In this document: positions 2,859 to 36,418 of the stretch, in pieces | How positions within the stretch are numbered: the stretch's first letter is position 1 | How the letters are laid out: the number at the start of each line of letters is the position of its first letter | Origin: a virus | IMG/VR virus record: IMGVR_UViG_3300045988_125015 | DNA length: 36,747 nucleotides | Direction: 5' to 3' (one strand) | The notes under the pieces: generated by a model | What the model was told of the DNA's origin: nothing | What the model saw: only the letters and a program-made list of their open reading frames with translations | Databases searched by the model: none | Made by a program: the position numbers and the translations under genes

Positions 2859-2964
2859 TGAGTTCGCCGAGCGCTTCAAGCGCGAGCTGACCGAGTGGTT
2901 TGCCAAAGACGAGACCCGTAAGGAGTTCGAGCAATGGAAAGCAAGCGGGGAGGTGGCGAGATGA
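2848..2964 (+). CDS. Small hypothetical protein (38 aa)
   Basis: Translated by eye as MSADEFAERFKRELTEWFAKDETRKEFEQWKASGEVAR. It overlaps the upstream stop, and its own stop forms an ATGA overlap with the next start, which indicates translational coupling. Confidence 0.4.
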   Translation: MSADEFAERFKRELTEWFAKDETRKEFEQWKASGEVAR

Positions 2965-3434
2965 GTGAGGATTGCATCCCAGGCTCGTGCAAGCACGAGA
3001 CCTACACGATGCGCACTGTTGCAAATAAGTATCTCTGCAATGGCTGCACTCGTTTGGGTCACGAGATGAGAGTCACGTGCAAAGGCGATGGTTACTGCTT
3101 TTTCGCCGACAAGCGCAACGTTTTCAAGATCACCTCAATCGAGGTCATCGATGAGGGCATGGGCATCTATCGCGAAGCTGTTTTGGCTAACAAGCGAGGC
3201 GATGCCTACCTGATTAAGCATTTCGAGCGTAAGGATGCCATCGAAACGAGGTGGCGCTCTGCCTTTTGCCTCGTATACAGGTACGACTTGGCAAAAGGCC
3301 TTGCGGACACGACTGAGCAGGTGGAGAACGTCAAGAAAATGCCATTCTCCAATTCCGTCGATGAGGTCGTGAGACGGCTTGGAATTAACTACGACAGGCA
3401 CCTGTATAACTATTCGATTCGAGGCGAGCTCTGA
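2961..3434 (+). CDS. Hypothetical protein with Cys-rich N-terminus
   Basis: ATG 2961 is preceded by GGGGAGG. The product is 157 aa, starting MSEDCIPGSCKHETY...CNGCTRLGH. The ORF is in the early operon. Confidence 0.6.
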   Translation: MSEDCIPGSCKHETYTMRTVANKYLCNGCTRLGHEMRVTCKGDGYCFFADKRNVFKITSIEVIDEGMGIYREAVLANKRGDAYLIKHFERKDAIETRWRSAFCLVYRYDLAKGLADTTEQVENVKKMPFSNSVDEVVRRLGINYDRHLYNYSIRGEL

Positions 3435-3658
3435 TGGTTCTCACCGAGAAAGAGCGCAAGGAATTAAAGCTTCAGCTTCGCCCTGTCGTTAAAAGAATGC
3501 TTGATGAGCAGCCTGTTGCAACTGCGATTGCCAATGCGATGCGCAGGAATCCAGATCTGACTTGGTCTGAGCTCGCCAGCGTGTTTTGTGAAGTCATGGG
3601 CTGCTTGCCAATAAATTGCCCCCACTGCGGAAAGAGAATCACAAATGTCGACGAATGA
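3434..3658 (+). CDS. Small zinc-ribbon protein (array member A)
   Basis: 74 aa ending NCPHCGKRITNVDE. It has a TGATG overlap with the upstream gene. Confidence 0.65.
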   Translation: MVLTEKERKELKLQLRPVVKRMLDEQPVATAIANAMRRNPDLTWSELASVFCEVMGCLPINCPHCGKRITNVDE

Positions 3659-3932
3659 TAAGCGAGCGATTGCCAATGAGTTGCGCCGTGTTGCGAATGA
3701 TTCATTGAATGGTGAGAGCTTGCAGCGCGCGCTTGCCAGAATTGCCGATGCCGATGATTCGAGTTGGCGTGGCGTAATGCACCGCCTTGCCGACCTGATT
3801 GAGCCGCCACTCACTTGCAACATCATGGGCGACGACAACTCTTTCATTTGCGAGAAATGCGGTGCCAAGTGGTCTTACGACCTTGGGTTTACGTACTGTC
3901 CGGAATGTGGAGCGGAGGTTACCAATGGCTAG
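3645..3932 (+). CDS. Zinc-ribbon protein (array member B, full three-motif type)
   Basis: 95 aa carrying DKRAIANELRR, RLADLIEPPLTC and CEKCG...YCPECGAEVTNG. Confidence 0.7.
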   Translation: MSTNDKRAIANELRRVANDSLNGESLQRALARIADADDSSWRGVMHRLADLIEPPLTCNIMGDDNSFICEKCGAKWSYDLGFTYCPECGAEVTNG

Positions 3933-4146
3933 TGCTAGAGAACAGCACCTTCCGTATTGCTCGACCGCTGATGTTGTCGTGCTCGATGGTGACGGCAGCA
4001 GGTGGGTGAGAGAGATGACGTGCCATCTCGTCGAGGACGAGGAAGGGCGCACAGCCTGCTCTGAGTGTGGATGCACCGCACTGTACATGCTCGATGCAAC
4101 GTACTGTCCCGACTGCGGATGCAAATTGCAAGGTGGTAGCGAATGA
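3925..4146 (+). CDS. Small zinc-ribbon protein (array member C)
   Basis: ATG 3925 follows GGAGG. The product is 73 aa with CSECG...YCPDCGCKL. The ATG lies inside the Asn-Gly-stop of the upstream gene. Confidence 0.6.
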   Translation: MASAREQHLPYCSTADVVVLDGDGSRWVREMTCHLVEDEEGRTACSECGCTALYMLDATYCPDCGCKLQGGSE

Positions 4147-4412
4147 ACTGCTTTTTCTGCGACGGCCCTCGCGTTGCACCTGTGCACAACATTCCTTTTC
4201 GCAACTCTCCGATTTACTCAATTGGGACTATGACGCTGACGCGCCGCTACGATGGCGAGCTGACTGTCGAGGTCAAAATTGATGACGATGTCGAGTTCGA
4301 TTTTGACAGCGAGTCGGTCGATGGCAGCCTTGCTGCCCATGTAACAGCATCTGGCAGCATCGACCATGTCAAGTACTGCCCGTTTTGCGGAAAGGAGATT
4401 GCCAATGGCTAA
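4143..4412 (+). CDS. Small zinc-ribbon protein (array member D)
   Basis: 89 aa with CFFCDG at the N-terminus and YCPFCGKEIANG at the C-terminus. It has an ATGA overlap with the upstream gene. Confidence 0.6.
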   Translation: MNCFFCDGPRVAPVHNIPFRNSPIYSIGTMTLTRRYDGELTVEVKIDDDVEFDFDSESVDGSLAAHVTASGSIDHVKYCPFCGKEIANG

Positions 4413-8907: not shown

Positions 8908-9166
8908 CAGCGAGCTCTTTATTGCGAATTGCAATACGATTGCCGTCACCGCAAGGGATCTAGCGGCAGATTATCGACCGCCTTTGAAAGACGCTGCCGC
9001 CGCCATTAAATGCGGCATGTGCTACAGCCTTATTGCCGAGACGTGCGACACACTTGCCAAACTCAGCAAAAAGAATATCGACATCGCCAACTGTGAATTT
9101 GACCCGTTGGTGTGCGTGGCAAGCATTCTTATCCACGGCACGACTGGCCCCAAGACCGAGGGCTGA
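8894..9166 (+). CDS. Hypothetical protein (paralog pair with 8560..8907)
   Basis: 90 aa containing ...CYSLIAETCDTLAKLSKK... Confidence 0.5.
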   Translation: MMTASSELFIANCNTIAVTARDLAADYRPPLKDAAAAIKCGMCYSLIAETCDTLAKLSKKNIDIANCEFDPLVCVASILIHGTTGPKTEG

Positions 9167-9168
9167 CC

Positions 9169-10344
9169 ATGGCGGCAACGGTCCCAGTCAAGCAGGATTC
9201 AAGGGGAATCTGGTACAGCAGAATATATCTTGGCAAGGATTCCAAGGGCAAGAAGATTCAGGCTTACCGCTCTTTTCCAGAGGCAACTAGTGAGGCCGAT
9301 GCTCGAGTCGCCGCGGCAATCTGGGCATCAGATCTCACGGCAGACGGCCGCGTGCGCTCAACGGTGCTCACCGACATGCTCGCCGACTATATCGAGATGC
9401 GCGAGATCAACGGCGCGAGCCCCAACTCGGTCAAGCAGTGGCGCCAATTCCTGCGCTGCTACATCAGCCGGTTCCTGCGCGGCAAGCGCGCCGACGAGCT
9501 CACGGCGCTCGACTTCACGCGATTCAACGGAGTGCTGCTACGCCACGGCTCGCGCGACGGCAAGCAGCTGAGCCCCAACACGGTCAACGCGGTCTACCAA
9601 TTCCTACGAGGTGCCTATAGGTACTTCGTGAGCGTAGGCCTCGTGGAGACCAACCCGCTGCTCGCCGCCGTCAAGCCATACCGCGACCAGGACGAGGCGA
9701 TCGCGCTTGAGGAGGACGATGTTGCAATCCTCAACGCCTACCTCGACCCGATCGTGAGCTTTGATGTGGAGGTGGGCGACATCGAGCGCCGGAATGCCTT
9801 TGCAGCCTGGCTCGCGCTCCACACCGGCGCGCGCTGCGGCGAGGTGTGCGCCGTGCGACCTAAGGACGTGTACCCAAAGCGCGGATATATCCACATCGGC
9901 GGCACGGTCGTGGAGCCCGGCAACGAGCAGCCATACCGCAAGGAGAAGCCAAAGAGCTCCACGTCCAGGCGCAACATCTCGCTCGTACCGGAGGAGCTGG
10001 AGGTCATCGCGAGATTCATGGCGTGGCACGAGACAAAGAAGGGGAGTGCCCGGGACATGGGCATCGCGAGCGTCGACGGCACGTGGGCGAGACCTTCGAC
10101 CTTGAGCAGCTGGTTCAAGCGGCTCGTCGAAAAGCTCGACCTCGACCGCCAAGCGACATTTCACACGCTTCGCCACACGCACGCCAGTTGGTGCCTGGCA
10201 CACGGTATCGACGTGGTGACGCTCAGCGAGCGCCTTGGACACTCATCGCCGGCAATCACGATCCGAATCTACGGTCACATGCTGCAGGGCCGCGACATGG
10301 CGGCAGCTGAAACTTTCTACAAGGCGATTCAAGGAGGTGTTTAG
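9169..10344 (+). CDS. Tyrosine recombinase / lambda-type phage integrase with arm-binding N-terminus
   Basis: 391 aa from ATG 9169. The N-terminus GIWYSRIYLGKDSKGKKIQAYRSF looks like an arm-type DNA-binding domain. Catalytic signature: HTGARCGEV (Arg), HTLRHTHAS (HxxR), LGHSS (His), IYGHM (Tyr). Confidence 0.85.
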   Translation: MAATVPVKQDSRGIWYSRIYLGKDSKGKKIQAYRSFPEATSEADARVAAAIWASDLTADGRVRSTVLTDMLADYIEMREINGASPNSVKQWRQFLRCYISRFLRGKRADELTALDFTRFNGVLLRHGSRDGKQLSPNTVNAVYQFLRGAYRYFVSVGLVETNPLLAAVKPYRDQDEAIALEEDDVAILNAYLDPIVSFDVEVGDIERRNAFAAWLALHTGARCGEVCAVRPKDVYPKRGYIHIGGTVVEPGNEQPYRKEKPKSSTSRRNISLVPEELEVIARFMAWHETKKGSARDMGIASVDGTWARPSTLSSWFKRLVEKLDLDRQATFHTLRHTHASWCLAHGIDVVTLSERLGHSSPAITIRIYGHMLQGRDMAAAETFYKAIQGGV

Positions 10345-26791: not shown

Positions 26792-28948
26792 ATGGCTTAT
26801 CATGCCGGCAACTGGGCTGGCCCGGCGGCGCTTTTCCGCGTGGTCGTCGCCTACAGCTTCGAGAACTACCGCGATGACGTTGTCAATCTCAAGGCTCGTT
26901 ACTATGTCGAGGTCTCTGCCAACTCGTCATTCAACGGCACCATCCTTAAGACGAGTTGGGGTCAGACCGTCAGGCTTTACGGTCAGGGCGTATACGCCGA
27001 TACCGGGTGGTGCGACTGGGGTGATGTCGGATACGGCCACACGGCTCGCGCGAGCATCTCCGCGGACTACACCTCATATTCTGGCGCTTACCACAAATCG
27101 TCTGTCGAGGGCGTCGAGACGGTCGGCGCACCTGAATGGCAACCGTACAACATCTCTGGCCTCAAGGTCGAGCGCCAATCCGACAGCTCCGCGAAACTGT
27201 CGTGGGGAAACAATGCACACGCCGCCCGTCCGTACCGACACATCTACATCGACCAGCGCATCGACGGTGGTGCATGGTCGAATGTCGCTGACCTCACCAA
27301 CTCGCCGACGTCCTGGACGGCATCGACCGCACCTGACCACTCGTATGAGTGGCGCGTCATACCCAACAACTACAACAGCTCGGCGCCCGATTACCAGTAC
27401 GCCGGGCCAATCTACAACACGCCTGCGCCTCCGAGATTCGTCTCGGTCGCGCGCAAGAGCAACACGATCGTCACGGCTGTGCTTGAAAACAGCTCGAACA
27501 CTGCCACCTCGCTCGAGTATCAGACGTGCAAGCAGGGGAGCACGGGATGGGGGGAATGGGGCGAGTCGACCTATGTCGACGGCCTCGTAAAGACCTTCGA
27601 TGTCGACCTCGGCGGCGGCACCTTCAAGCTGCGCGCTCGAAACAAACGCCTGCACCTCGACAGCGAATGGGCCGAGTCCGATTCGGTCGTGACAATCTGC
27701 CCGCCGATGGCTCCGACACTCGTGACGCCGGCATCGTCTGGTGTCATCGCGTCCAACGAGTCTACGGTCGCATACCAGTGGCGCCATAACCCGTATGACG
27801 GCTCAGATCAGCAAAAGGCAGAGCTCGCCATCAGTACAGACGGCGGCAGCAGCTGGACGGTCGATGAAGTCACCGGCAATCAGAGCACAATCGTCAAGGC
27901 AAACGTATATGGCGTTAATCAGCGGGTCGTTTGGCGCGTCCGCACAAAGGGTGCGGATGACAATTTTGGACCCTGGTCGGCCAACCGCACCTTTAGCGTG
28001 CGACAGCGCCCGACTGTTGTCATCGAGCAGCCCGCGGACGGCTTTGTCATCACCGACGTGCCGATCTCGCTAAAGCTGACGTATATCGACCAGTCCGGCA
28101 CCGTGCAGGCATCGACGCTCACGATCACGCGCGGCGACGAGGTGGTCTTTACAAAGTCGCTCGGCAAGTCCCTCACGACCACCATCACGACCGACGAGTG
28201 GGTGCCGGTTGATGGCGAGACCTACGTGATCAACGTCATGTCCCGATCGACCTCGTCGCTCACGGCGACCACGAAACGCACCGTCAAGACCAAGTTTCGC
28301 CTGCCTCAGCGCGGAAACATCTTCGTTGAGACGGACCCGGTCACCGGATGCGCGACTGTACAGGTCAGGCTCTCGCGCGACAGCGAGCTCGCCACTGCCG
28401 TGTGCCTCGACCTCTACCGCGTGACCGAGACCGGACGCATCAAGATCGGCTCCGACATGAGCGACGGTGCCGAGGTCATCGACCGCTTCGCTCCGCTCAA
28501 CATCGAGTACACCTACGAGGCCGTCACGACCTCCGGCACCGGCGCCGTCAACACCTCGACCGCCACCGGTATCATCGAGACGCCGTGGTGGTTCATTATT
28601 TACGATGGTGGTATAGCTCAGGCGATGTGGGAGCCATCCGGCTCACGCACGCCCACGCGCCCGTCCGATGAGATCGTTGAGCTCGATGGCAGGACGTGGC
28701 CCCTGCTCGTCCAATCGCGTCAACGCTCGCTCAAGATTGATTTTTCCGGGTGGGTCGAGTCCCGAGAGCAGGCGCGCGCATTCGAGAGTATGACCTTCGC
28801 CTCGGGTGACAAGATCTACAAGGGCCTGTCGGGTGACGTTTTCCATTGCTCCGCATCGGCGAAAATCGATGAGGAATACGACGGATTCGAGGACTACAGC
28901 GCATCGGTCTCAGTATCCATTACGAGAGTCGACGGCGGTGAGGTCTGA
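26792..28948 (+). CDS. Distal tail (Dit-like) protein with multiple FN3-like repeats
   Basis: 718 aa. It has repeated roughly 90-aa modules ending W..W.......(F/V) (e.g. SYEWRVIPNN, VVWRVRTKGADDNFGPWS). The C-terminal part looks like a siphovirus tail protein. It is the first gene after the tape measure. Confidence 0.55.
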   Translation: MAYHAGNWAGPAALFRVVVAYSFENYRDDVVNLKARYYVEVSANSSFNGTILKTSWGQTVRLYGQGVYADTGWCDWGDVGYGHTARASISADYTSYSGAYHKSSVEGVETVGAPEWQPYNISGLKVERQSDSSAKLSWGNNAHAARPYRHIYIDQRIDGGAWSNVADLTNSPTSWTASTAPDHSYEWRVIPNNYNSSAPDYQYAGPIYNTPAPPRFVSVARKSNTIVTAVLENSSNTATSLEYQTCKQGSTGWGEWGESTYVDGLVKTFDVDLGGGTFKLRARNKRLHLDSEWAESDSVVTICPPMAPTLVTPASSGVIASNESTVAYQWRHNPYDGSDQQKAELAISTDGGSSWTVDEVTGNQSTIVKANVYGVNQRVVWRVRTKGADDNFGPWSANRTFSVRQRPTVVIEQPADGFVITDVPISLKLTYIDQSGTVQASTLTITRGDEVVFTKSLGKSLTTTITTDEWVPVDGETYVINVMSRSTSSLTATTKRTVKTKFRLPQRGNIFVETDPVTGCATVQVRLSRDSELATAVCLDLYRVTETGRIKIGSDMSDGAEVIDRFAPLNIEYTYEAVTTSGTGAVNTSTATGIIETPWWFIIYDGGIAQAMWEPSGSRTPTRPSDEIVELDGRTWPLLVQSRQRSLKIDFSGWVESREQARAFESMTFASGDKIYKGLSGDVFHCSASAKIDEEYDGFEDYSASVSVSITRVDGGEV

Positions 28949-30069
28949 TGGCCGACTGGAAGGGCGCTCGCTACGATGCAGGATGGCTCTACCGTCGAAT
29001 CAAATGGGGGACGTGGGACGAGCTCGGACTTTACGACAACATCGAGAGCGCGAGCATCAACCGCTCGGCATTCGACACGCTCAAGACGTCCGGTTCGCTC
29101 AAGTATTTCGGCGCCGCGCCCGATGAGGTGGACGCGCTCGCGCTCATCTACACGTTCCGCGACCGAAACGGCGTGACGGTCGAGCAGAGACGCGCGACCG
29201 TCCTCGTGGAATCTGATGAGCCGGACTACACCTCGCTCGACGGCGGTGGAGTCCGGCAATCCGGTAGCTCTAAGCTCTACTCGCTGCTCAAAGTCCTGTC
29301 CGATACAAAGCTCAAGGTGCCCTACACGGTCACGGCTGGCACCAACGCCATCGCCGCCGCCAACAAGATCATCACCGGCACCGGCCTGCGAACTAACTGC
29401 CAATCATCCAGCTATCTGTTGAGTTGCGACCACACTTTCGCACCTGACGATACTCTGCTCGATGTTGTCAACTACCTGCTCGATGCCGCGGGGTACGGTT
29501 CTGCCGATACAGATGCCTACGGCACGGTCATCCTCAAGCCCTACATCGAGCCGACCGCCCGCGAGCTCGCCTGGACTTTTGCCAACGATGAGACCTCGAC
29601 GCTCATGCCCGGAATCGAGTCTGAGAACGATTGGCGCAATACGCCCAACATCGTCGTGCTCACCTATGAGACAGATGATGAGACGTATATCGCCCAGGCT
29701 CGCAACATCGACCCCGAGAGCAGGGCGTCGCTGCCATCGCGCTCGTGGCGCGAGAATTCCACGGTCGAGCAGGTCAGCGAACTTGACGGTGAGACCAAGG
29801 AGGAACGGCTTGAAAACCTCAAGACGCTCGCGCGAAAGAAGCTGCTCGATGGCAGCTCCGAAATCCAGTACACCAAGGTCAAGACGCTGCTCGTGCCGGT
29901 AGAAATCAATGACGCCGTCGGTGTGCTCTACTCAGGGCTCAAGCGCCAGGGCGCGATCACCTCAATTGATACCTCGTGCACGCCGACAGCCGAGTCGAAT
30001 GTCAAGATTCGAGAATTCATCAGGCGCGACCTGCTCGTCGATGTGATCGGTCAGGTTATCGCCGCATAA
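28948..30069 (+). CDS. Tail-associated / baseplate protein
   Basis: 373 aa with an ATGA-type overlap. It is the second gene after the tape measure. Confidence 0.45.
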   Translation: MADWKGARYDAGWLYRRIKWGTWDELGLYDNIESASINRSAFDTLKTSGSLKYFGAAPDEVDALALIYTFRDRNGVTVEQRRATVLVESDEPDYTSLDGGGVRQSGSSKLYSLLKVLSDTKLKVPYTVTAGTNAIAAANKIITGTGLRTNCQSSSYLLSCDHTFAPDDTLLDVVNYLLDAAGYGSADTDAYGTVILKPYIEPTARELAWTFANDETSTLMPGIESENDWRNTPNIVVLTYETDDETYIAQARNIDPESRASLPSRSWRENSTVEQVSELDGETKEERLENLKTLARKKLLDGSSEIQYTKVKTLLVPVEINDAVGVLYSGLKRQGAITSIDTSCTPTAESNVKIREFIRRDLLVDVIGQVIAA

Positions 30070-30082
30070 AGGGGGTCAAACC

Positions 30083-30328
30083 ATGGCTGACAGCATGGTC
30101 CGCGAGGCCGAGCGCGCCTTGCGGCTCAGTCAGGCACCGCGCTCGCCAGATTATCACGTGCGAGGCAAGGTCATGGCGGTGAAGGACGGCGCATATCAGG
30201 TGCGTCTTTCCGCTGCCGAGAACTTGACCGCCTGTTCGCGGTACTGCGACGCAAAGGTCGGTGACACCGTACTGGTCCTGGTCATGTCGAGCGGCCAATG
30301 CGCCGCCATCGCAAAGCTAATCAAGTAA
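30083..30328 (+). CDS. Small tail/baseplate protein
   Basis: 81 aa, located within the tail module. Confidence 0.4.
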   Translation: MADSMVREAERALRLSQAPRSPDYHVRGKVMAVKDGAYQVRLSAAENLTACSRYCDAKVGDTVLVLVMSSGQCAAIAKLIK

Positions 30329-30341
30329 AGAGAGGGGCGTT

Positions 30342-31166
30342 ATGGCTCAAGAACTAACGTTCGATACAAAAAAGCCCGAGAATGCCTTTAGGGAGCAGCG
30401 AATCGACCCGCTTCGCCGAGGCGAGCGCGGAAACCGCGAGCTCACGGTGAGCATCGCCTACAAGGGCATCCCTTACGACCTCACCGGCTGCACCGTGCGA
30501 TTCGTCGGCACCACCGGCACCGGTCAGCTCGTGGGTCCGATCGAGATCGAGGTCGCCAACGCGCCCGCCGGCATGGTCCGCCATGTTCTGCCGGCTGAGA
30601 TGTCGACCGATGCTGGACTCGCGCATTGGTACTACGAGATTTACAAGGGAGAGGACTATCTCGACACGACCGAGTCATGCTCGGTAAAGGTCCTGCAAAA
30701 TGCCGATATCGGCGGTCAGCAGGCGACGGTCTATATCTCGATTTTGGAACAGGCGAAAATCGATGAGCAGGCACGTACCGTTGCCGAGACCAAGCGCGCC
30801 GAGGCCGAGAAACAGCGCGTTGCCAACGAGACAGAGCGCGAGACTTCCTTTATAGAGATGTCGAACAAGCTCTCTGCTGCGACCGCAGCTGCCAAAGCCG
30901 CTCGCGATGATGCGACCGCATCTGCCATCGCTGCCAAGGAGTCCGAGGATGCTGCCGCGGCTAGTGCCTTGAGCGCCGGTAAATCGGCAGACAGCGCCGC
31001 CGCCGCCATCAAGGAGACGGCTGATGCCGCCGCCGATGCGCGACTCGCGGCAGAGGAGGCGCGAGGCTCCATTTCTGCCGACAAGAGCATGTATTTCAAG
31101 CGCATTACCGATGAGAACGGCGACACATGGCCTGTCATCGTCGATACGACCGTTAAGGGGGACTAA
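30342..31166 (+). CDS. BppU-like baseplate upper protein with Ala-rich coiled coil
   Basis: 274 aa. The N-terminal Ig-like segment (ELTVSIAYKGIPYDLTGCTVRFVG...) is followed by an Ala/Glu-rich coiled coil. Confidence 0.5.
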   Translation: MAQELTFDTKKPENAFREQRIDPLRRGERGNRELTVSIAYKGIPYDLTGCTVRFVGTTGTGQLVGPIEIEVANAPAGMVRHVLPAEMSTDAGLAHWYYEIYKGEDYLDTTESCSVKVLQNADIGGQQATVYISILEQAKIDEQARTVAETKRAEAEKQRVANETERETSFIEMSNKLSAATAAAKAARDDATASAIAAKESEDAAAASALSAGKSADSAAAAIKETADAAADARLAAEEARGSISADKSMYFKRITDENGDTWPVIVDTTVKGD

Positions 31167-32759
31167 ATGGATCATATCTTTCCAGTAAATGACACGTTTG
31201 AAAAGGGCTTTGGCACTATCACCGATGCCATCCTGAGCCTGAATGTCGCACCTGCGCCCTATCCGGAATGGGATGCCGCCAAGGGCGAATTCACCGTCAA
31301 GTCCATCCTGCGATGGCTGAGCTCGGAAAGCGACGGCAAGATCTACGCCGTCGACCAGACGCTCGATGCCGTTCAGACGCCCACCAAGAGCCTCGCAAAC
31401 GCCGACATCGCCAACCCGGTGCCGTCCACGCTGCTCAAGCCAGGCACCGACCCTTACATGGGTGTCGGTCCGTTCCGCTATGAGCACGTCAACGGCTACA
31501 AGGACAATGCCGGTACCTGGCACATCACCGGCATGCGCTCCTTTGGCAACTTCTCCTATACGGACGGTCGAGACGTTTTCGCCCTCGCGCCCGTGCGCTA
31601 TGTGTTCCATGGCATCGTCGATGGCAAGTATCGTGTCGCCTGTTCCGACCGTCCCCATGTTGGCTACGTTCCCGAGGACCGCTCGATCCGTATTGACGGC
31701 ACGCTCGAGCCATTCATGTGCCGCGCGGCTTTTGGCGCATCCAAGGATTCAGCCGGAAAGCCCTGCTCGGTCGCCGGCGCCAAGCTCTGGACCCGTAGCT
31801 GCTCGCACAATTCGATGAATGATGCAGCCAAGAAGAAGGGCACCGAGTACAGCGGCTATACCGCAGCGGACTACGATTATCTTTACGAGATGAACCTGCT
31901 CAAGTATGCCAACAAGTCGAGTCAGGCCAATTTCGCCGGCTGCTCGAACCATACCGAGCAGACGCCCGTCACGGTGGCAGGCACCGGTGCGCCCACCGTC
32001 ACCATCGCCAAGACCGTCGCCGACAAGTGGCCCATCGGCTCTGCCGTCATGGTCGGCACCACCAAGGTCGCCGGTCGAGACCGAGGCAATGCCGATGCCT
32101 TCGACATCGCTGATCAGGCCAACATCGTCAAAAAGACCGTCGCCGGCGACAACGTCGTGCTGACGCTCGACTGCGGCAACATCTCGACCGAGGTCGGTCA
32201 GCTTGTCTCCACGGCTCCGTGGAATCCCGGCGCGACCGTCGGCATCGTCGGCGACGGCTCGCCCTACGATAATAAGTCCGGTCGCGAGCCCTTCACCATC
32301 CAGGGCATCGAGGTCATGCTTGGCGCCTGGGAGATTCTCGGCGATCAGCTCGTCAAGGGCGAGGATGACGGCTATGGCTACTACCTTGTCGAGGACACGT
32401 CCAAGTCTGCCACCTCCGTGACCTCCGACTACACCAAGATTTTCACTTTGCCGATCAAGTCCGCCGATGGCGAGATGTACCCGTCGGCAATGGTCAAGGG
32501 CAAGGGCTCTCTGGTGCCATATGGCACCGGCGGCTCAACCGGCGCAGGTGTCGGTGACGGCATTTGGTATTACGGTGGGAAAAAGACCGATACGTATGAA
32601 GTCCGGGTGTTCGGCATCCTCTGGTATGGCTCTAGCGCTGGCTTGCGCCGCGCGGACCTTGACAGCTGGCCGGCCTGGGCGTGGTGGGGCTACGCTTCGC
32701 GCGTCTCGCCAAATGGTCGAAACAGGGTGAATGCCGACGTGCCGCCGCAGGCGGCGTAA
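31167..32759 (+). CDS. Tail fibre / receptor-binding protein; DGR target with C-terminal variable region
   Basis: 530 aa, the last structural gene before the lysis region. The C-terminal VRVFGILWYGSSAGLRRADLDSWPAWAWWGYASRV is encoded by the VR. Confidence 0.8.
   Translation: MDHIFPVNDTFEKGFGTITDAILSLNVAPAPYPEWDAAKGEFTVKSILRWLSSESDGKIYAVDQTLDAVQTPTKSLANADIANPVPSTLLKPGTDPYMGVGPFRYEHVNGYKDNAGTWHITGMRSFGNFSYTDGRDVFALAPVRYVFHGIVDGKYRVACSDRPHVGYVPEDRSIRIDGTLEPFMCRAAFGASKDSAGKPCSVAGAKLWTRSCSHNSMNDAAKKKGTEYSGYTAADYDYLYEMNLLKYANKSSQANFAGCSNHTEQTPVTVAGTGAPTVTIAKTVADKWPIGSAVMVGTTKVAGRDRGNADAFDIADQANIVKKTVAGDNVVLTLDCGNISTEVGQLVSTAPWNPGATVGIVGDGSPYDNKSGREPFTIQGIEVMLGAWEILGDQLVKGEDDGYGYYLVEDTSKSATSVTSDYTKIFTLPIKSADGEMYPSAMVKGKGSLVPYGTGGSTGAGVGDGIWYYGGKKTDTYEVRVFGILWYGSSAGLRRADLDSWPAWAWWGYASRVSPNGRNRVNADVPPQAA
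32601..32707 (+). repeat. DGR variable region (VR)
   Basis: 107-bp ungapped match to 32832..32938. All 16 mismatches are at template adenines. Confidence 0.9.
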
Positions 32760-32831
32760 GTCGGCAGAGGGGCGGCGCCCCTGAAAAACGACCCAGGGAC
32801 CTGCCGTGCATGCAGGTGGAATTCCTTTTTC

Positions 32832-32938
32832 GTCCAGGTGTTCGGCAACCTCAGGAATGGCTCTAACGCTGGCTTGCGCCGCGCGAACCTTAACAACTGG
32901 CCGGACAGGGCGAGGTGGAACAACGCTTCGCGCGAATC
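32832..32938 (+). repeat. DGR template region (TR)
   Basis: Non-coding copy of the VR containing 23 adenines. Read in the VR frame it contains six AAC codons and one AAT codon. Confidence 0.9.
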
Positions 32939-33067
32939 TGATTGATAGCTCCCATATAAAACCCGCACGGCAGAGTACCCGGTGGAAGCATCGGGCACGC
33001 CTGGCTTAACCAAGTGAAATGGCATATAAGACCACCGGGCCAGTAGGCATTTTGCCGACCACTCGGA

Positions 33068-34165
33068 ATGCAATCAGAGAGCTTATTTGGTCGAATGAAA
33101 AGTTACTGCAAAGGCCTTGCCGTCGATACCGATCTTGTCGGCAGGGCCTATGGAAATTGGCGGTCCGGCGAATCAGGCCGGACCAATGAATGGCGTGTGT
33201 ACAAGGAATATGGCTCGCCCGATGCCCTTATCGCCGAGATCGTAGCCGAGGCAAATGCCGGCACGCTGCGATTCGAACCGCTGCACACGAGGCCGAGACA
33301 AGACGGAGGCAAGCTGCGCAATATCGGCGTCGAAGGTGTCAAGCAGCAGATCTGCGGCTACACCGTCGACCTCGCCGTCGATGCGCTCATGCGCGCGAAA
33401 ACCGGTTACTGGCAGGTCAACAGGCCAGGCATGGGCCAGTTCCGCGCGGCGCCCACGGTGCAGAAGTGGGTCAACCAGTGCGCCTATCACGTGCATCTCG
33501 ACGTCAAATCCTGCTATGAGTCCGTGAGGTGCGCCGACGTCATGCGAGTGCTCGAGAAGTACGTGCGCTCGGGCGTTGTACTCGGTATCGCCAAGGCAAT
33601 CATGGACTCGTACCCAGACGGTCACCTGATGATCGGTAGCTATTTCTCACTCAGGATGGCGCTGCTCATCCTGAGCTTTGGCTACCACCATGTCGAGGAC
33701 ATGTACAAGGTTCGCCGTGGCAAGCGTGTCGCGCTTGTCGAGCACCAGGCATGGTACGTCGATGATATCTGGCTGTTCGGCGGCGACAAGAGAAATCTCA
33801 AGTGCGCAGCGCGTGACCTCGCAAAGTACCTCAAGGCCGAGTTTGGGCTCCGGCTCAAGCCCTGGAAGGTATGCAGGGCCACAGACGATGAGCCGACGGA
33901 CATCGCCGGCCCCGTCGTTAGGCGCAAGCGGATCACCATCCGCGACAAGACCTTTCGCAAAGGCCGTCGAGCGTTATTCCGATGCCGTCGAAAACCGACG
34001 AATCTGAGGCTGGCGCGTCGCCTGATCGCCTACTGCGGATGGTTCAAACACACCGACAGCCAGAGATTCTGCGATGACAACGGCCTCTATCCGGCACGCC
34101 GTCAAGCCAAAAAGGTAATCGCTAGACACGACAGATTTAGGAGTTCTCATGCAATTCGAGCTTGA
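33068..34165 (+). CDS. DGR-type reverse transcriptase
   Basis: 365 aa with RT motifs, including the catalytic YVDD (QAWYVDDIWLFGG) and an upstream LDVKSCYES-type motif. Small size, no maturase or endonuclease domains, and immediately 3' of the TR. Confidence 0.85.
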   Translation: MQSESLFGRMKSYCKGLAVDTDLVGRAYGNWRSGESGRTNEWRVYKEYGSPDALIAEIVAEANAGTLRFEPLHTRPRQDGGKLRNIGVEGVKQQICGYTVDLAVDALMRAKTGYWQVNRPGMGQFRAAPTVQKWVNQCAYHVHLDVKSCYESVRCADVMRVLEKYVRSGVVLGIAKAIMDSYPDGHLMIGSYFSLRMALLILSFGYHHVEDMYKVRRGKRVALVEHQAWYVDDIWLFGGDKRNLKCAARDLAKYLKAEFGLRLKPWKVCRATDDEPTDIAGPVVRRKRITIRDKTFRKGRRALFRCRRKPTNLRLARRLIAYCGWFKHTDSQRFCDDNGLYPARRQAKKVIARHDRFRSSHAIRA

Positions 34166-34523
34166 GTTTTGCGACCGCGAGCCCGCAAAGGTGACGGTCA
34201 TCCAAGACGGTCCCATCGCCAACATCTGGCTCCGCAAGGACATCACCGAGGACACCGTCGATAACGGTCCTGACGGCACACCTTACAAGATTTGGCGATG
34301 CAACACGTTGTTTTTCCAGCGCATCGGTACGCCGAGCGTCGAGGAAATCGAAGCCGACTTCGATGCAATCGCCGAGCAGCAGATCGCAGGCGGTCGCACG
34401 GTCGACGAGCGCATCGGTGCGACCGAGCAGGCTGTCGCCGACAACGGCAAGCAGCTTGAGACTGCGTTTCAGGCGCTCGCCGAACTTGGCGACATGATCG
34501 CAACGGCGGGAGGTGAAGTCTAA
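34149..34523 (+). CDS. Hypothetical acidic protein (XkdW-like position)
   Basis: 124 aa, AGGAG RBS. It overlaps the RT stop by 17 nt and lies between the fibre/DGR and an XkdX-like ORF. Confidence 0.5.
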   Translation: MQFELEFCDREPAKVTVIQDGPIANIWLRKDITEDTVDNGPDGTPYKIWRCNTLFFQRIGTPSVEEIEADFDAIAEQQIAGGRTVDERIGATEQAVADNGKQLETAFQALAELGDMIATAGGEV

Positions 34524-34648
34524 TGGCAGCAATCTACGCGACCCTCATCAAGGATGGGGCGATCAATCCCAAGACCGGTGAGCCTTGGAAGATTGAGGAC
34601 GTGAACGTCCTTTGGCGCGCGTCCGTCAAAAAGATTCTCGACAAGTAG
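34523..34648 (+). CDS. XkdX-like small protein (41 aa)
   Basis: Translated by eye as MAAIYATLIKDGAINPKTGEPWKIEDVNVLWRASVKKILDK. It has a TAATG overlap and is followed by a terminator. Confidence 0.45.
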   Translation: MAAIYATLIKDGAINPKTGEPWKIEDVNVLWRASVKKILDK

Positions 34649-34652
34649 GACT

Positions 34653-34677
34653 GGCCCCGAAAGGGGCCTTTTCTTTT
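34653..34677 (+). terminator. Rho-independent terminator
   Basis: ggcccc gaaa ggggcc followed by ttttctttt. Confidence 0.75.
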
Positions 34678-34727
34678 GCGCTGGCTGATGGCGGCTAGCG
34701 CTGGGATGGGGCAAAGGGGGTGAATGA

Positions 34728-35141
34728 ATGGAAATTCTAAAGCTCTTCGTACCATATGGCCCGGCGTGGCTTGGCGGCGTACTGCTTGCACTCATCGCCT
34801 TTTATTTCGGCAAACAGTTTCTTGAAGAGTACAAGCTGCAAAACGAACGCAAGAGCGCACTCGATATCAAGCGCGAGGAGCGAAAGCAAGACGAAGTCAA
34901 CGAGCGCGCCCAGCGCGACCGCGAGCGGTCGGAGATGGAGGGGCGCATTGCAGCGCAGATGGAGCGCAGTAACAGCCTCATGGAGGCGATGAAAACGCTG
35001 ATGGAGTCGGTTGTGGCGTCAAACGACGTCCTTCATGCGGATCTGGTCCACAGCCAGACACGCAGCCAGGGCATGGCTCAAAAGGTCGACCACATCTGCG
35101 ACCGGGTCGATCTGCTCTACGACAAAGAATCAACAAGATAG
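34728..35141 (+). CDS. Membrane-anchored coiled-coil protein (lysis-cassette accessory)
   Basis: 137 aa. An N-terminal TM segment (PAWLGGVLLALIAFYFG) is followed by a charged coiled coil. It lies just upstream of the holin. Confidence 0.5.
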   Translation: MEILKLFVPYGPAWLGGVLLALIAFYFGKQFLEEYKLQNERKSALDIKREERKQDEVNERAQRDRERSEMEGRIAAQMERSNSLMEAMKTLMESVVASNDVLHADLVHSQTRSQGMAQKVDHICDRVDLLYDKESTR

Positions 35142-35150
35142 GGATTCAAA

Positions 35151-35456
35151 ATGACAGAGATTCAGGCTGGTCTCACAGTAGCCACGGTGCTTGTGGTGCC
35201 ATACATCGTGCAGGCCATCAAGACCAAGGCAATGACCGGTAACGCCGCTCGCTGGACTGCGATCGCCGTATCGGTTCTGTGTGGCGCCCTCACAGCCATG
35301 GCAAGCGGGATGCCGACTGACCCAGGCGCCTGGGTGACATCAATCTTTGCTTGCGTCGGAGGCGTACAGGTAGCCTACGCAGCTTTCAAGAGCGTCGGAA
35401 TCACCGACAAATGGCTCGATGCGCTGCTCGCGCTCGGCGATATTAAGGCGAACTAG
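35151..35456 (+). CDS. Holin (three predicted TM segments)
   Basis: 101 aa with hydrophobic segments GLTVATVLVVPYIVQAI, WTAIAVSVLCGALTAMA and WVTSIFACVGGVQVAYAAF. It lies directly upstream of the endolysin. Confidence 0.7.
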   Translation: MTEIQAGLTVATVLVVPYIVQAIKTKAMTGNAARWTAIAVSVLCGALTAMASGMPTDPGAWVTSIFACVGGVQVAYAAFKSVGITDKWLDALLALGDIKAN

Positions 35457-35458
35457 CC

Positions 35459-36418
35459 ATGGCAATCACCCAGCGCGAGGCATTCGCGCAGGTCATGGAA
35501 CATCTTGTCACCCATGACGGCGGCTCCGGTCATGGTTACTCGCAATACAATCGCATGGGCGACGGCACCACCGAGACGATCAGGCTTTCTGATGGCACGA
35601 CCGTGACCATTGCCGGCGGCGACCGTGATTGCTCGTCTGCCGTCATTACGGCACTTCGCGCCGTCGGTATCAACACCTTCGGCGCCACATATACCGGCAA
35701 CATGGTCGAACAGCTGCTCAAGACCGGGTTGTTCGGATGGCGCAAAATGGGCGTCAAGTCCGCTCAGCGCGGAGACATCTATGTCAACAAGCGCTGTCAC
35801 ACCGCCGTGTGCATCTCGCCTTACGGATCCATGCGCGGAGACCTCTTGGCGCAATTCTCTATCTCCGAGAAGGGCACCATCACTGGCACCAAGGGCGACC
35901 AAAACAGCCGCGAGTCCAACATTAAGGCGTACTACTCCTATCCGTGGGACGGCACGCTCTACTGGCTCAACGATGGCAAGACGCTTTCAGGCTCCAATAC
36001 CGAGGTCGCCGACAACACCGATGCCGATCTCGGCGATGTGCGTTACTGGGGCCCCAAGTTCACGCGCGCGCTTCAAAAGCAGCTCGGCACTACCGTCGAT
36101 GGCGTTATTTCCGGTCAGTGGGATTGCAACAAGCGATATTTCTGGGCTGTCGAAAATTGCGTCAATTGGACAAAGACCGGCAAGGGCGTCGGCTCTGACA
36201 TGGTGCTCGCGCTACAAAAGAAAATCGGCTGCAAGATTTACCCGATCGTCGGCGGTGTCCAGGCTCGACAGATGACCAATGGCACCATCTACAGGCACCA
36301 GCAGTGGCTCATCGCCAACGGTATTTCGGTCGGATCGTGTGGTGCCGATGGCTTTCATGGTCACGACACCAACCGAGCGGTCGCGCAGGCAATCAAGCGC
36401 AAGCTCTATGCAGCTTAG
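35459..36418 (+). CDS. Endolysin: Amidase_5 (Pal-like) catalytic domain plus C-terminal wall-binding repeats
   Basis: 319 aa. YSQYNRMGDG...GGDRDCSSAVITALRAVG...AQRGDIYVNKRCHTAVC parallels the Dp-1 Pal amidase (YSMDFRDGPDSYDCSSSMYYALRSAG...AKRGDIFIWG...GHTGMF). The C-terminal repeats look like ALQKQLG..VDGVISG. Confidence 0.75.
   Translation: MAITQREAFAQVMEHLVTHDGGSGHGYSQYNRMGDGTTETIRLSDGTTVTIAGGDRDCSSAVITALRAVGINTFGATYTGNMVEQLLKTGLFGWRKMGVKSAQRGDIYVNKRCHTAVCISPYGSMRGDLLAQFSISEKGTITGTKGDQNSRESNIKAYYSYPWDGTLYWLNDGKTLSGSNTEVADNTDADLGDVRYWGPKFTRALQKQLGTTVDGVISGQWDCNKRYFWAVENCVNWTKTGKGVGSDMVLALQKKIGCKIYPIVGGVQARQMTNGTIYRHQQWLIANGISVGSCGADGFHGHDTNRAVAQAIKRKLYAA

Follow-up and report, generated by a model that had tools for sequence, protein, structure and literature searches.

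A diversity-generating retroelement without an avd gene in a temperate siphophage of Collinsella, and the conserved structured RNA around its template repeat

The DNA analysed here is a stretch of 36,747 nucleotides given as IMG/VR virus record IMGVR_UViG_3300045988_125015 (this whole stretch is hereafter called the window), and we focus on a putative diversity-generating retroelement (DGR) located at its tail-fibre gene. The window is a temperate siphophage with a G+C content of 52-63%, and its genes include those for a serine integrase, a large terminase, a portal, a protease, a major capsid protein and a tape-measure protein of 960 aa. Its 3' module is arranged in the following order: tail proteins, a BppU_N baseplate protein, a 530-aa fibre, the template repeat (TR), the reverse transcriptase (RT), open reading frames (ORFs) of 124, 41 and 137 aa, holin and endolysin. 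The window appears to correspond to a nearly complete prophage, from integrase through endolysin, and its host is Collinsella (Coriobacteriia). A preliminary description, made from the letters alone, had proposed that a DGR diversifies the C-terminus of the fibre; this proposal is supported by the pattern of mismatches between the two repeats, the placement of the RT, the predicted fold of the fibre and the variation among near-identical genomes, and the fibre ORF named there is present. The coordinates of all features are listed in Table 1.

Table 1. Features of the DGR locus and their positions in the window
Feature	Position	Strand	Evidence and remarks
DGR target, 530-aa tail fibre/receptor-binding protein	31167..32759	+	ORF; phrog_17147, E 2.6e-63; VR at C-terminus
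Variable repeat (VR)	32601..32703	+	Repeat finder, base-by-base comparison and search with N-at-adenine pattern
Two GC-rich hairpins after VR	32732..32782	+	32732-32766 spans fibre stop codon; 32768-32782; DNA fold
TR RNA 5' flank	32796..32809	+	Conserved GGGA, then helix 5' strand CTGCCGTGC (32801-32809); covariation
Template repeat (TR), non-coding	32832..32938	+	23 adenines, 21 in mutagenic part 32832-32934
TR 3'-boundary strand TCTGATTG of long-range duplex	32937..32944	+	Pairs with 33071-33078
3' strand GCACGGCAG of TR-bracketing helix	32965..32973	+	Pairs with 32801-32809
Structured RNA between TR and RT, hairpins P2-P6	32975..33083	+	Ends with CAATCAGA (33071-33078), then GAG
DGR reverse transcriptase, 356 aa	33095..34165	+	YVDD; motif 4 IGSYFSL; alternative upstream ATG 33068
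124-aa gene (p124)	34149..34523	+	Start overlaps RT stop; next to RT throughout the family

Adenine-specific mutagenic homing from a TR to a VR is the hallmark of DGRs, for which the Mtd/Brt system of Bordetella phage BPP-1 is the paradigm. In the window, a repeat finder independently paired 32601-32703 with 32832-32934 (86% identical), and the 107-nt alignment of 32601-32707 with 32832-32938 is gapless at an offset of 231. All 16 mismatches in this alignment fall on TR adenines, i.e., on 16 of the 23 adenines, and are divided into seven A>G, seven A>T and two A>C; the chance that 16 of 16 mismatches fall on 23 adenines among 107 sites is P = 5.7e-14. Homology collapses on both sides of the repeat, and a pattern with N at each TR adenine occurs in only two copies in the window, where the expected number is 0. 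A third copy of the shared 3' end was searched for in the window and not found, and the window therefore has a single target. Most TR adenines (22/23) are located at codon position 1 or 2. The repeat coordinates, the gapless alignment and the adenine-only mismatches with their 7/7/2 split had been given in the preliminary description and were all reproduced base by base; its translations of the TR and the VR are correct, its distance of 72 nt from the fibre stop codon to the TR was confirmed, and a non-adenine mismatch, which it had named beforehand as evidence against a DGR, was not found inside the repeat.

The mutagenised VR sites span 32605-32691 and are followed by a GC-rich 3' end, CGCTTCGCGCG (32693-32703), which is the same in the TR and the VR and looks like an IMH-type (initiation of mutagenic homing) element. 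The final two mismatches at 32704-32705 (AA>TC) recur unchanged in the VRs of two collinear relatives, designated L001 and L002, and show no variation in any relative; the codon altered by them encodes V in all of 16 near-identical fibre proteins. These two positions are probably a fixed difference of the IMH/IMH* type, and thus 14 of 21 adenines would really be mutagenised. The number 16 given earlier therefore holds as a count of mismatches and probably not as a count of mutated adenines.

The VR encodes residues 479-514 of the fibre, whose gene lies directly after the BppU_N baseplate gene. An AlphaFold2 model of the fibre was obtained with a predicted local distance difference test score of 91.9 and a predicted template modelling score of 0.90, and its sole significant match among solved structures is TaqVP of Thermus aquaticus (PDB 5vf4; E 1e-6, probability 1.0, about 460 aligned columns), a DGR variable protein with a C-type-lectin fold. 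This match bears out the fold of the C-type-lectin type that had been looked for at the fibre C-terminus. Dozens of viral models annotated as 'tail fiber' or 'tail collar fiber', some of them from crAss-like phages, also match the fibre model. The fibre resembles TaqVP in being a prophage DGR variable protein with a C-terminal VR, and differs from it in sequence (13% identity), in superposition (TM-score 0.34-0.45) and in domain arrangement.

For the RT, 194 relatives were found in a large protein collection. All relatives begin with MK[ST]YCK, and the window has MKSYCK at the ATG at 33095, so that this position is the true start of the RT; the ORF of 33068..34165 with YVDD reported earlier does exist and has this motif, while its start is to be replaced by the conserved one. 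The 27 nt of the longest ORF upstream of the conserved start (33068-33094) overlap a conserved RNA element ending in CAATCAGAGAG, and in one relative (P0043) gene calling has extended the RT ORF back through the TR, producing an N-rich N-terminal extension. The window RT matches phrog_1423 'reverse transcriptase' at E 2.5e-30. A family profile built from 29 relatives was aligned by hhalign to the Bordetella RT (bRT) with 98.3% probability (E 1.3e-14; 288 columns, bRT residues 28-331), and this alignment takes in the N-terminal extension and the thumb motif. Among solved structures, the profile matches bRT (8ub7) first at E 1.6e-16, which is nine orders of magnitude ahead of the next ones, retron-type and group II RTs at about 1e-7, and residues aligned to R74 and I181 of bRT are conserved. 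The RT is of ordinary length (356 aa versus 328 for bRT) and has no fused or extra domain. The alternative assignments named in the preliminary description, an RT of a group II intron or a retron, were rejected: the match to TIGR04416 (E 2.3e-5) reached 23.7 bits against a cut-off of 300, the corresponding structure matches are far weaker than that of bRT, and no intron or retron RNA was found by an Rfam search. Homology thus shows an RT of the bRT lineage combined with a variable protein of the DGR type.

The motif 4 signature of DGR RTs is [LIV]GxxxSQ. In this family, motif 4 could be located in 117 of 120 relatives, every one of which has IGSYFS[L/M], while it is IGSLTSQ in bRT and IGFYSSQ in the RT of phage LBR48. 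The glutamine of this motif in bRT (Q187) contacts the incoming nucleotide. Because the same variant is found in all 117 relatives, its absence is, as judged from these sequences, a lineage-specific substitution and a family trait rather than decay, and the adenine-specific pattern of mutagenesis is seen despite the absent glutamine.

Near-identical genomes were compared in place of read mapping, and the evidence for activity accordingly consists of comparison between genomes. The L001 and L002 contigs are about 93% identical to the window and collinear with it, and their TRs are identical to each other. The VRs of these two contigs differ at 14 sites, all 14 of which are TR adenines, and each contig has 16 adenine-only mismatches between its own TR and VR. 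Their TR differs from that of the window at eight sites, and all six non-adenine differences are mirrored in the VR of each locus. Outside the VR, the fibre genes of the identical-TR genomes differ at about 9% of sites, mostly at third-codon positions as judged by spacing. The fibre is a member of a 90%-identity cluster of 784 sequences, from which 16 full-length proteins were compared (the window and 15 cluster members). These 16 near-identical fibres have 16 different VRs, and 10 of the 12 alignment columns with at least four residues lie at residues 484-509, on adenine-bearing TR codons.

A scan of one genome per species gave 43 related loci, almost all from Collinsella and other Coriobacteriia, and the RT of locus L005 is 94% identical to that of the window. 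Across the related loci, conservation is limited to the fibre, the RT and the 124-aa ORF. TR/VR pairs were found in 36 of the 40 loci having at least 120 nt upstream of the RT, and in all 36 the order is VR, TR and RT, with 209-267 nt between the starts of VR and TR and 131-182 nt from the TR end to the RT. In 35 distinct Coriobacteriia pairs, 91% of 502 mismatches are on TR adenines. The comparison shows a transfer of information from TR to VR that is directional and adenine-specific and, as far as can be read from these genomes, still ongoing in natural populations.

Loss of TR adenines was observed in some relatives. The TR of locus L037 (7738-7837) differs from that of its sister L038 (7738-7837) at four sites, all of which are A in L038, and at these sites the L037 TR has the base of its own VR. 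Similarly, the TR of L007 (7731-7843) has five lost-adenine sites when compared with L011 and L027; four of them equal its own VR, and they are clustered in the 5' part. Such eroded TRs look like the result of occasional VR-to-TR conversion or of homing of mutagenised cDNA into the TR, and, if this is true, the directionality would be leaky and the template would be subject to erosion.

The absence of an Avd gene near the cassette, claimed in the preliminary description, agrees with our search: no match to the families of the type of Bordetella Avd (bAvd; PF22296/PF05635) was found by a Pfam scan among the 165 six-frame ORFs (70-230 aa) of the window. The scan was complete to E 0.1 from 25.8 kb to the window end, where the matches at E <=0.1 belong to eight unrelated families, and matches below about 0.008 were visible elsewhere; the positive control, Bordetella Avd, was detected with PF22296 at E 7e-36. 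Nor could a gene be accommodated in the non-coding gaps, which measure 72 nt and, between the end of the TR and the conserved start of the RT, about 156 nt. The target, TR and RT lie on one strand and no HRDC or MutS-like Pfam match was found in the genes at 28948-36418, both of which are features of Architecture A1.

According to Wu et al. (2018, PMC5758913), avd is absent in 26% of 372 curated DGRs, 'Architecture A' (TR-RT only) accounts for 29% of DGRs, 'Lineage 3' is entirely without avd, and profile searches of the genomes of Avd-less DGRs gave no remote avd. The present element shares with Architecture A1/Lineage 3 the TR-RT core, the single adjacent target, the phage association and the small number of non-adenine substitutions. 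It is a further example of this known class of Avd-less, phage-borne DGRs, and the absence of Avd is not new; the compact cassette had been called unusual, which was an overstatement since the class is catalogued and the layout recurs in isolated phages. No study on the mechanism of the Avd-less class was found in the literature searched, and neither RNA structure nor mechanism has been described for Architecture A1/Lineage 3. In the DGR literature searched, Collinsella is mentioned in one paper, for the CspRecT recombinase only, and neither Roux et al. (2021) nor a 2024 survey makes a statement on Avd or Coriobacteriia.

Among isolated phages, the Butyrivibrio phage Arawn (NC_048848; L050) has a VR at 2653-2763 and a TR at 2895-3005, both of 111 nt, and an RT at 3162-4307; all nine mismatches are on TR adenines and the TR has its own bracketing helix. 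Arawn was isolated from the rumen and has an intact DGR; in its original publication the RT was taken for a possible means of prophage immunity, and a DGR is not mentioned. Arawn and the faecal phage MT835477 resemble the window in having a fibre of about 510-525 aa, a gap of 70-130 nt, the TR, a spacer of about 160-185 nt and an RT of about 380 aa, which leaves no space for avd. In Arawn and the Lactobacillus phage LBR48, as in the window, small tail-module ORFs come after the RT, and then holin and lysin: a 71-aa ORF and an XkdX gene precede holin and lysin in Arawn, and an overlapping ORF and small ORFs precede them in LBR48. The comparison with LBR48, whose own TR and target were not located, covers the RT (E 1e-26 against the family profile) and the downstream gene order. 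The window differs from LBR48, Arawn, the Butyrivibrio phage Idris and MT835477 in that RT identity is only about 27-29% and the gene after the RT is not homologous, and differs from LBR48 further in that the RT of the latter keeps SQ of motif 4.

The non-coding sequence around the TR is conserved among the related loci. Because z-scores of RNAduplex for the TR flanks against shuffled sequences were not significant in GC-rich sequence, the helices presented here rest on covariation and not on energy; z-scores of the minimum free energy (MFE) are likewise unremarkable (-1.24 for the RNA and -1.6 for the post-VR DNA). Anchored analyses and a sub-alignment were used in place of RNAalifold on the whole VR-to-RT alignment, which mixed VR and RNA elements and misaligned the group of the window. 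The helix bracketing the TR is present in the MFE fold of the window and is found elsewhere as TCGCGGCG/CGCCGCGA, CGTGGCG/CGCCACG, TCGCGGA/TCCGCGA and CCGCCGTGC/GCACGGCGG, giving five variants with compensatory changes. The TR 3'-boundary strand, which is absent from the VR copy, pairs with its partner about 140 nt downstream; 6-8 contiguous base pairs are formed in 13 of 17 distinct loci, and positions 5, 6 and 8 covary (A-U/G-C and U-A/A-U swaps). In hairpins P2-P6, located between these two long-range pairings, 89.4% of cells are paired and 14 pairs are changed on both sides; neither the percentage of pairing, nor the number of double-change cells, nor the covariation score observed was reached in any of 500 shuffles, and slid controls gave 28-44%. 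A covariance model (R1) places the RNA immediately upstream of the RT in six family loci outside the training set (E <=1.7e-18), and did not detect the loci of Arawn, LBR48 or MT835477. No Rfam family matches the TR-RT RNA. What is added here is this predicted conserved RNA around the TR, with its two covarying long-range helices and without a stem-loop at the place bound by Avd in Bordetella, together with the motif-4 variant of the RT.

In the window, a stretch of about 26 nt separates the TR-boundary strand from the 3' strand of the TR-bracketing helix; it is rich in A/U, and no stable stem-loop is formed there. The post-TR segment of 53 nt, including the TR end and the 3' helix strand, has a folding energy of -5.7 kcal/mol, while the value is -18.4 for the first 40 nt of the Bordetella spacer. 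The two hairpins on the other side of the TR start 25 bp after the VR and extend to about 75 bp, with covarying stems in all related loci, and are candidates for a target-recognition hairpin or cruciform, a terminator, or both. Stems of 7-10 bp located 4-34 bp after the VR, with a loop consensus of 5'-GRNA, have been described by Guo et al. (2011). A minus-strand ORF of 111-151 aa lies over the TR and its flanks in the window (32690-33073), L001 (5596-5931) and L002 (3839-4294), and public assemblies list it as a gene; most likely this ORF is a spurious by-product of the GC-rich non-coding RNA region.

These observations can be arranged in the following model. A transcript of about 32796-33083 would carry the TR between structured flanks, and the RT would copy the TR to cDNA faithfully except opposite adenines. 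The cDNA would then replace the VR at the 3' end of the fibre gene, re-randomising about 14 codons of the fibre tip, which is C-type-lectin-like, and the altered tip would change receptor specificity. The TR would keep its adenines owing to the flanking RNA elements and the TCTGATTG boundary present on the TR copy only. In the ribonucleoprotein of Bordetella, there are three relevant features: the 'cPRT Stop' duplex of upstream with downstream sequence, a template:primer duplex of TR with spacer that stops at the priming adenosine, and a stem-loop directly after the TR to which Avd binds. The TR-bracketing duplex may be likened to the 'cPRT Stop' duplex, and the duplex of the TR 3' boundary with the conserved CAGA|GAG element before the RT start to the template:primer duplex, in which case A33078 would be the cis-priming nucleotide. 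Since the first two features have plausible counterparts and the Avd stem-loop is missing in the window, the RNA anatomy would fit an Avd-independent mechanism.

In the window as in the BPP-1 DGR as a whole (mtd-avd-TR-brt), the transfer from TR to VR is specific to adenines and reaches the 3' end of a tail protein that binds the receptor, the RT is homologous over its full length, a GC-rich element lies at the 3' end of VR and TR with hairpins after the VR, and the TR RNA has structured flanks, one duplex joining the upstream flank to the downstream one and another involving the TR 3' end. Unlike BPP-1, the window has neither avd nor a stem-loop directly after the TR, its RNA elements come in another order, its motif 4 is IGSYFSL and not IGSLTSQ, and the target has no Mtd domains.

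We consider it very probable (a probability of about 0.85), on the basis of sequence comparison, that the window carries an active DGR in a temperate siphophage of Collinsella. That this DGR works without Avd is, with clearly less confidence, the better supported view, drawn from the absent gene and the RNA anatomy. A further step is tentative and stands below even odds: that the element may be a naturally minimal two-component DGR consisting of RT and structured RNA, in which the RNA scaffold replaces Avd and adenine infidelity arises without the motif-4 glutamine. Several observations weigh against these views. The window RT falls under the cut-off of Pfam RVT_1 (20.6 versus 29.6 bits; E 4e-4) and is without the glutamine of the IGxxxSQ motif; the loops of the post-VR hairpins are GTAA/GCAA in relatives and 3 nt in the window, and not GRNA; a stem-loop directly after the TR is present in one relative (L046); and the stop-like strand precedes the primer-like strand here, the functional analogies with Bordetella being drawn by inference. 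In addition, the case for independence from Avd combines an absence of evidence with RNA anatomy, and leaves room for a host factor or the 124-aa gene.

The low RVT_1 score and the aberrant motif 4, together with the eroded TRs of some relatives, would also be expected if the cassette were now dead and the TR/VR pattern recorded only past activity. This is the least probable of the explanations considered and is most improbable in itself, since VRs differ at adenine sites between identical-TR genomes whose fibre genes have diverged elsewhere to the extent given above, each of the near-identical fibres has a VR of its own, the RT ORF is intact with YVDD, and the motif-4 variant is family-wide. 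An Avd-type or other helper might instead act in trans, encoded on the host chromosome or by other DNA outside the window, as avd, TR and brt of Bordetella do function when supplied in trans. We regard this as very unlikely, because the window, which appears to be nearly the whole prophage, has no Avd-like ORF, Wu et al. found no remote avd by profile search in genomes of Avd-less DGRs, the window RNA is without the position of an Avd-binding stem-loop, and the cassette works in hosts of several families.

An accessory of another kind could be encoded next to the RT itself. The product of the 124-aa gene (p124) might be a dedicated non-Avd accessory analogous to the small acidic 'CH1' of Avd-less Bacteroides DGRs, which is confined to DGRs without avd and has an average isoelectric point (pI) of 4.7 (Wu et al., 2018, PMC5758913). 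In nearly all related loci the gene next to the RT on its downstream side is a p124 homologue, the other neighbours being variable; in the window there is an overlap of 17 nt between the p124 start and the RT stop codon, and p124 is acidic (pI 4.13). On the other hand, this pI stands against 9.98 for the RT and 9.55 for bAvd, p124 sits between the fibre and the XkdX-like gene of a module running from fibre to holin to lysin, and its predicted fold, a beta-sheet domain with helices or a coiled coil, is not a helical bundle. The longer homologues have a carbohydrate-binding module, the CBM_5_12 domain, which would be consistent with a role at the virion surface. In the phage collection, tblastn found no p124 homologue, though five faecal phage records there carry homologous fibre-RT pairs; the overlapping ORF downstream of the LBR48 RT is unrelated to p124, and in Arawn the RT is followed first by a 71-aa ORF, likewise unrelated, and next by a gene of the XkdX family. 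We therefore think an accessory role of p124 unlikely, if less so than a helper in trans. Most simply, p124 is a phage tail-module gene and not a DGR component.

p124 has no Pfam match and no match among solved structures. It was examined as an analogue of Avd or XkdW and rejected in both roles, as there was no Pfam, solved-structure or fold match and hhalign against bAvd gave a probability of 0.08%. The preliminary description had placed the cassette before XkdW/XkdX-like genes: the name XkdW for the 124-aa ORF was positional only and is not retained, and XkdX for the 41-aa ORF is mainly positional, as this ORF matches NCBIfam CD1375 and phrog_1382 only weakly (E about 2e-4). An abundant 238-aa form of the p124 family carries the CBM_5_12 domain at its C-terminus (E 8.9e-10) and is located directly after the RT in loci L034-L036, L040-L042, L047 and L052-L059. 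One exact protein of this form (P0198) is found on 641 contigs, and one database copy is misnamed 'chitin oligosaccharide deacetylase'; a look-up of the genomic context of the long form returned copies of one prophage only and was hence uninformative. The only strong site resembling an intrinsic terminator on the plus strand of the region is at 34653-34668, after the 41-aa ORF, and is composed of GGCCCC-GAAA-GGGGCC followed by a T-run. This suggests that one transcript may cover the fibre, the TR, the RT and the genes of 124 and 41 aa. A scan for a sigma-70-like promoter upstream of the TR on the plus strand found none.

Two integrases are encoded in the prophage, a 510-aa serine recombinase at 42-1574 on the minus strand and a 410-aa tyrosine integrase at 9112-10344 on the plus strand, in the middle of the early region. 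Contig CAVCHM010000002.1 (103 kb) has two copies of one DGR locus about 50 kb apart (L037 at 41830-58867 and L039 at 91966-103436) with identical TR/VR coordinates and mismatch counts, which may reflect a tandem prophage or an assembly concatemer. In blastn of the cassette against the phage collection, there was no match at the DNA level, relatives being found there at the protein level only, and an exact-sequence look-up of the window RT gave no record.

Gut phages are rich in DGRs, and a DGR at a tail fibre is as such ordinary. The Avd-less class, in turn, represents about a quarter of DGRs, and the present family provides many natural variants of a cassette of about 1.4 kb composed of TR RNA and RT. 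The long-range helices mapped by covariation turn the question of how a DGR may work without Avd into specific mutational tests, and the family-wide loss of the motif-4 glutamine with adenine mutagenesis kept bears on how adenine infidelity arises. If RT and RNA suffice, such a cassette, used for programmable mutagenesis in vivo, would be a chassis simpler than the systems of bRT plus Avd that are being engineered.

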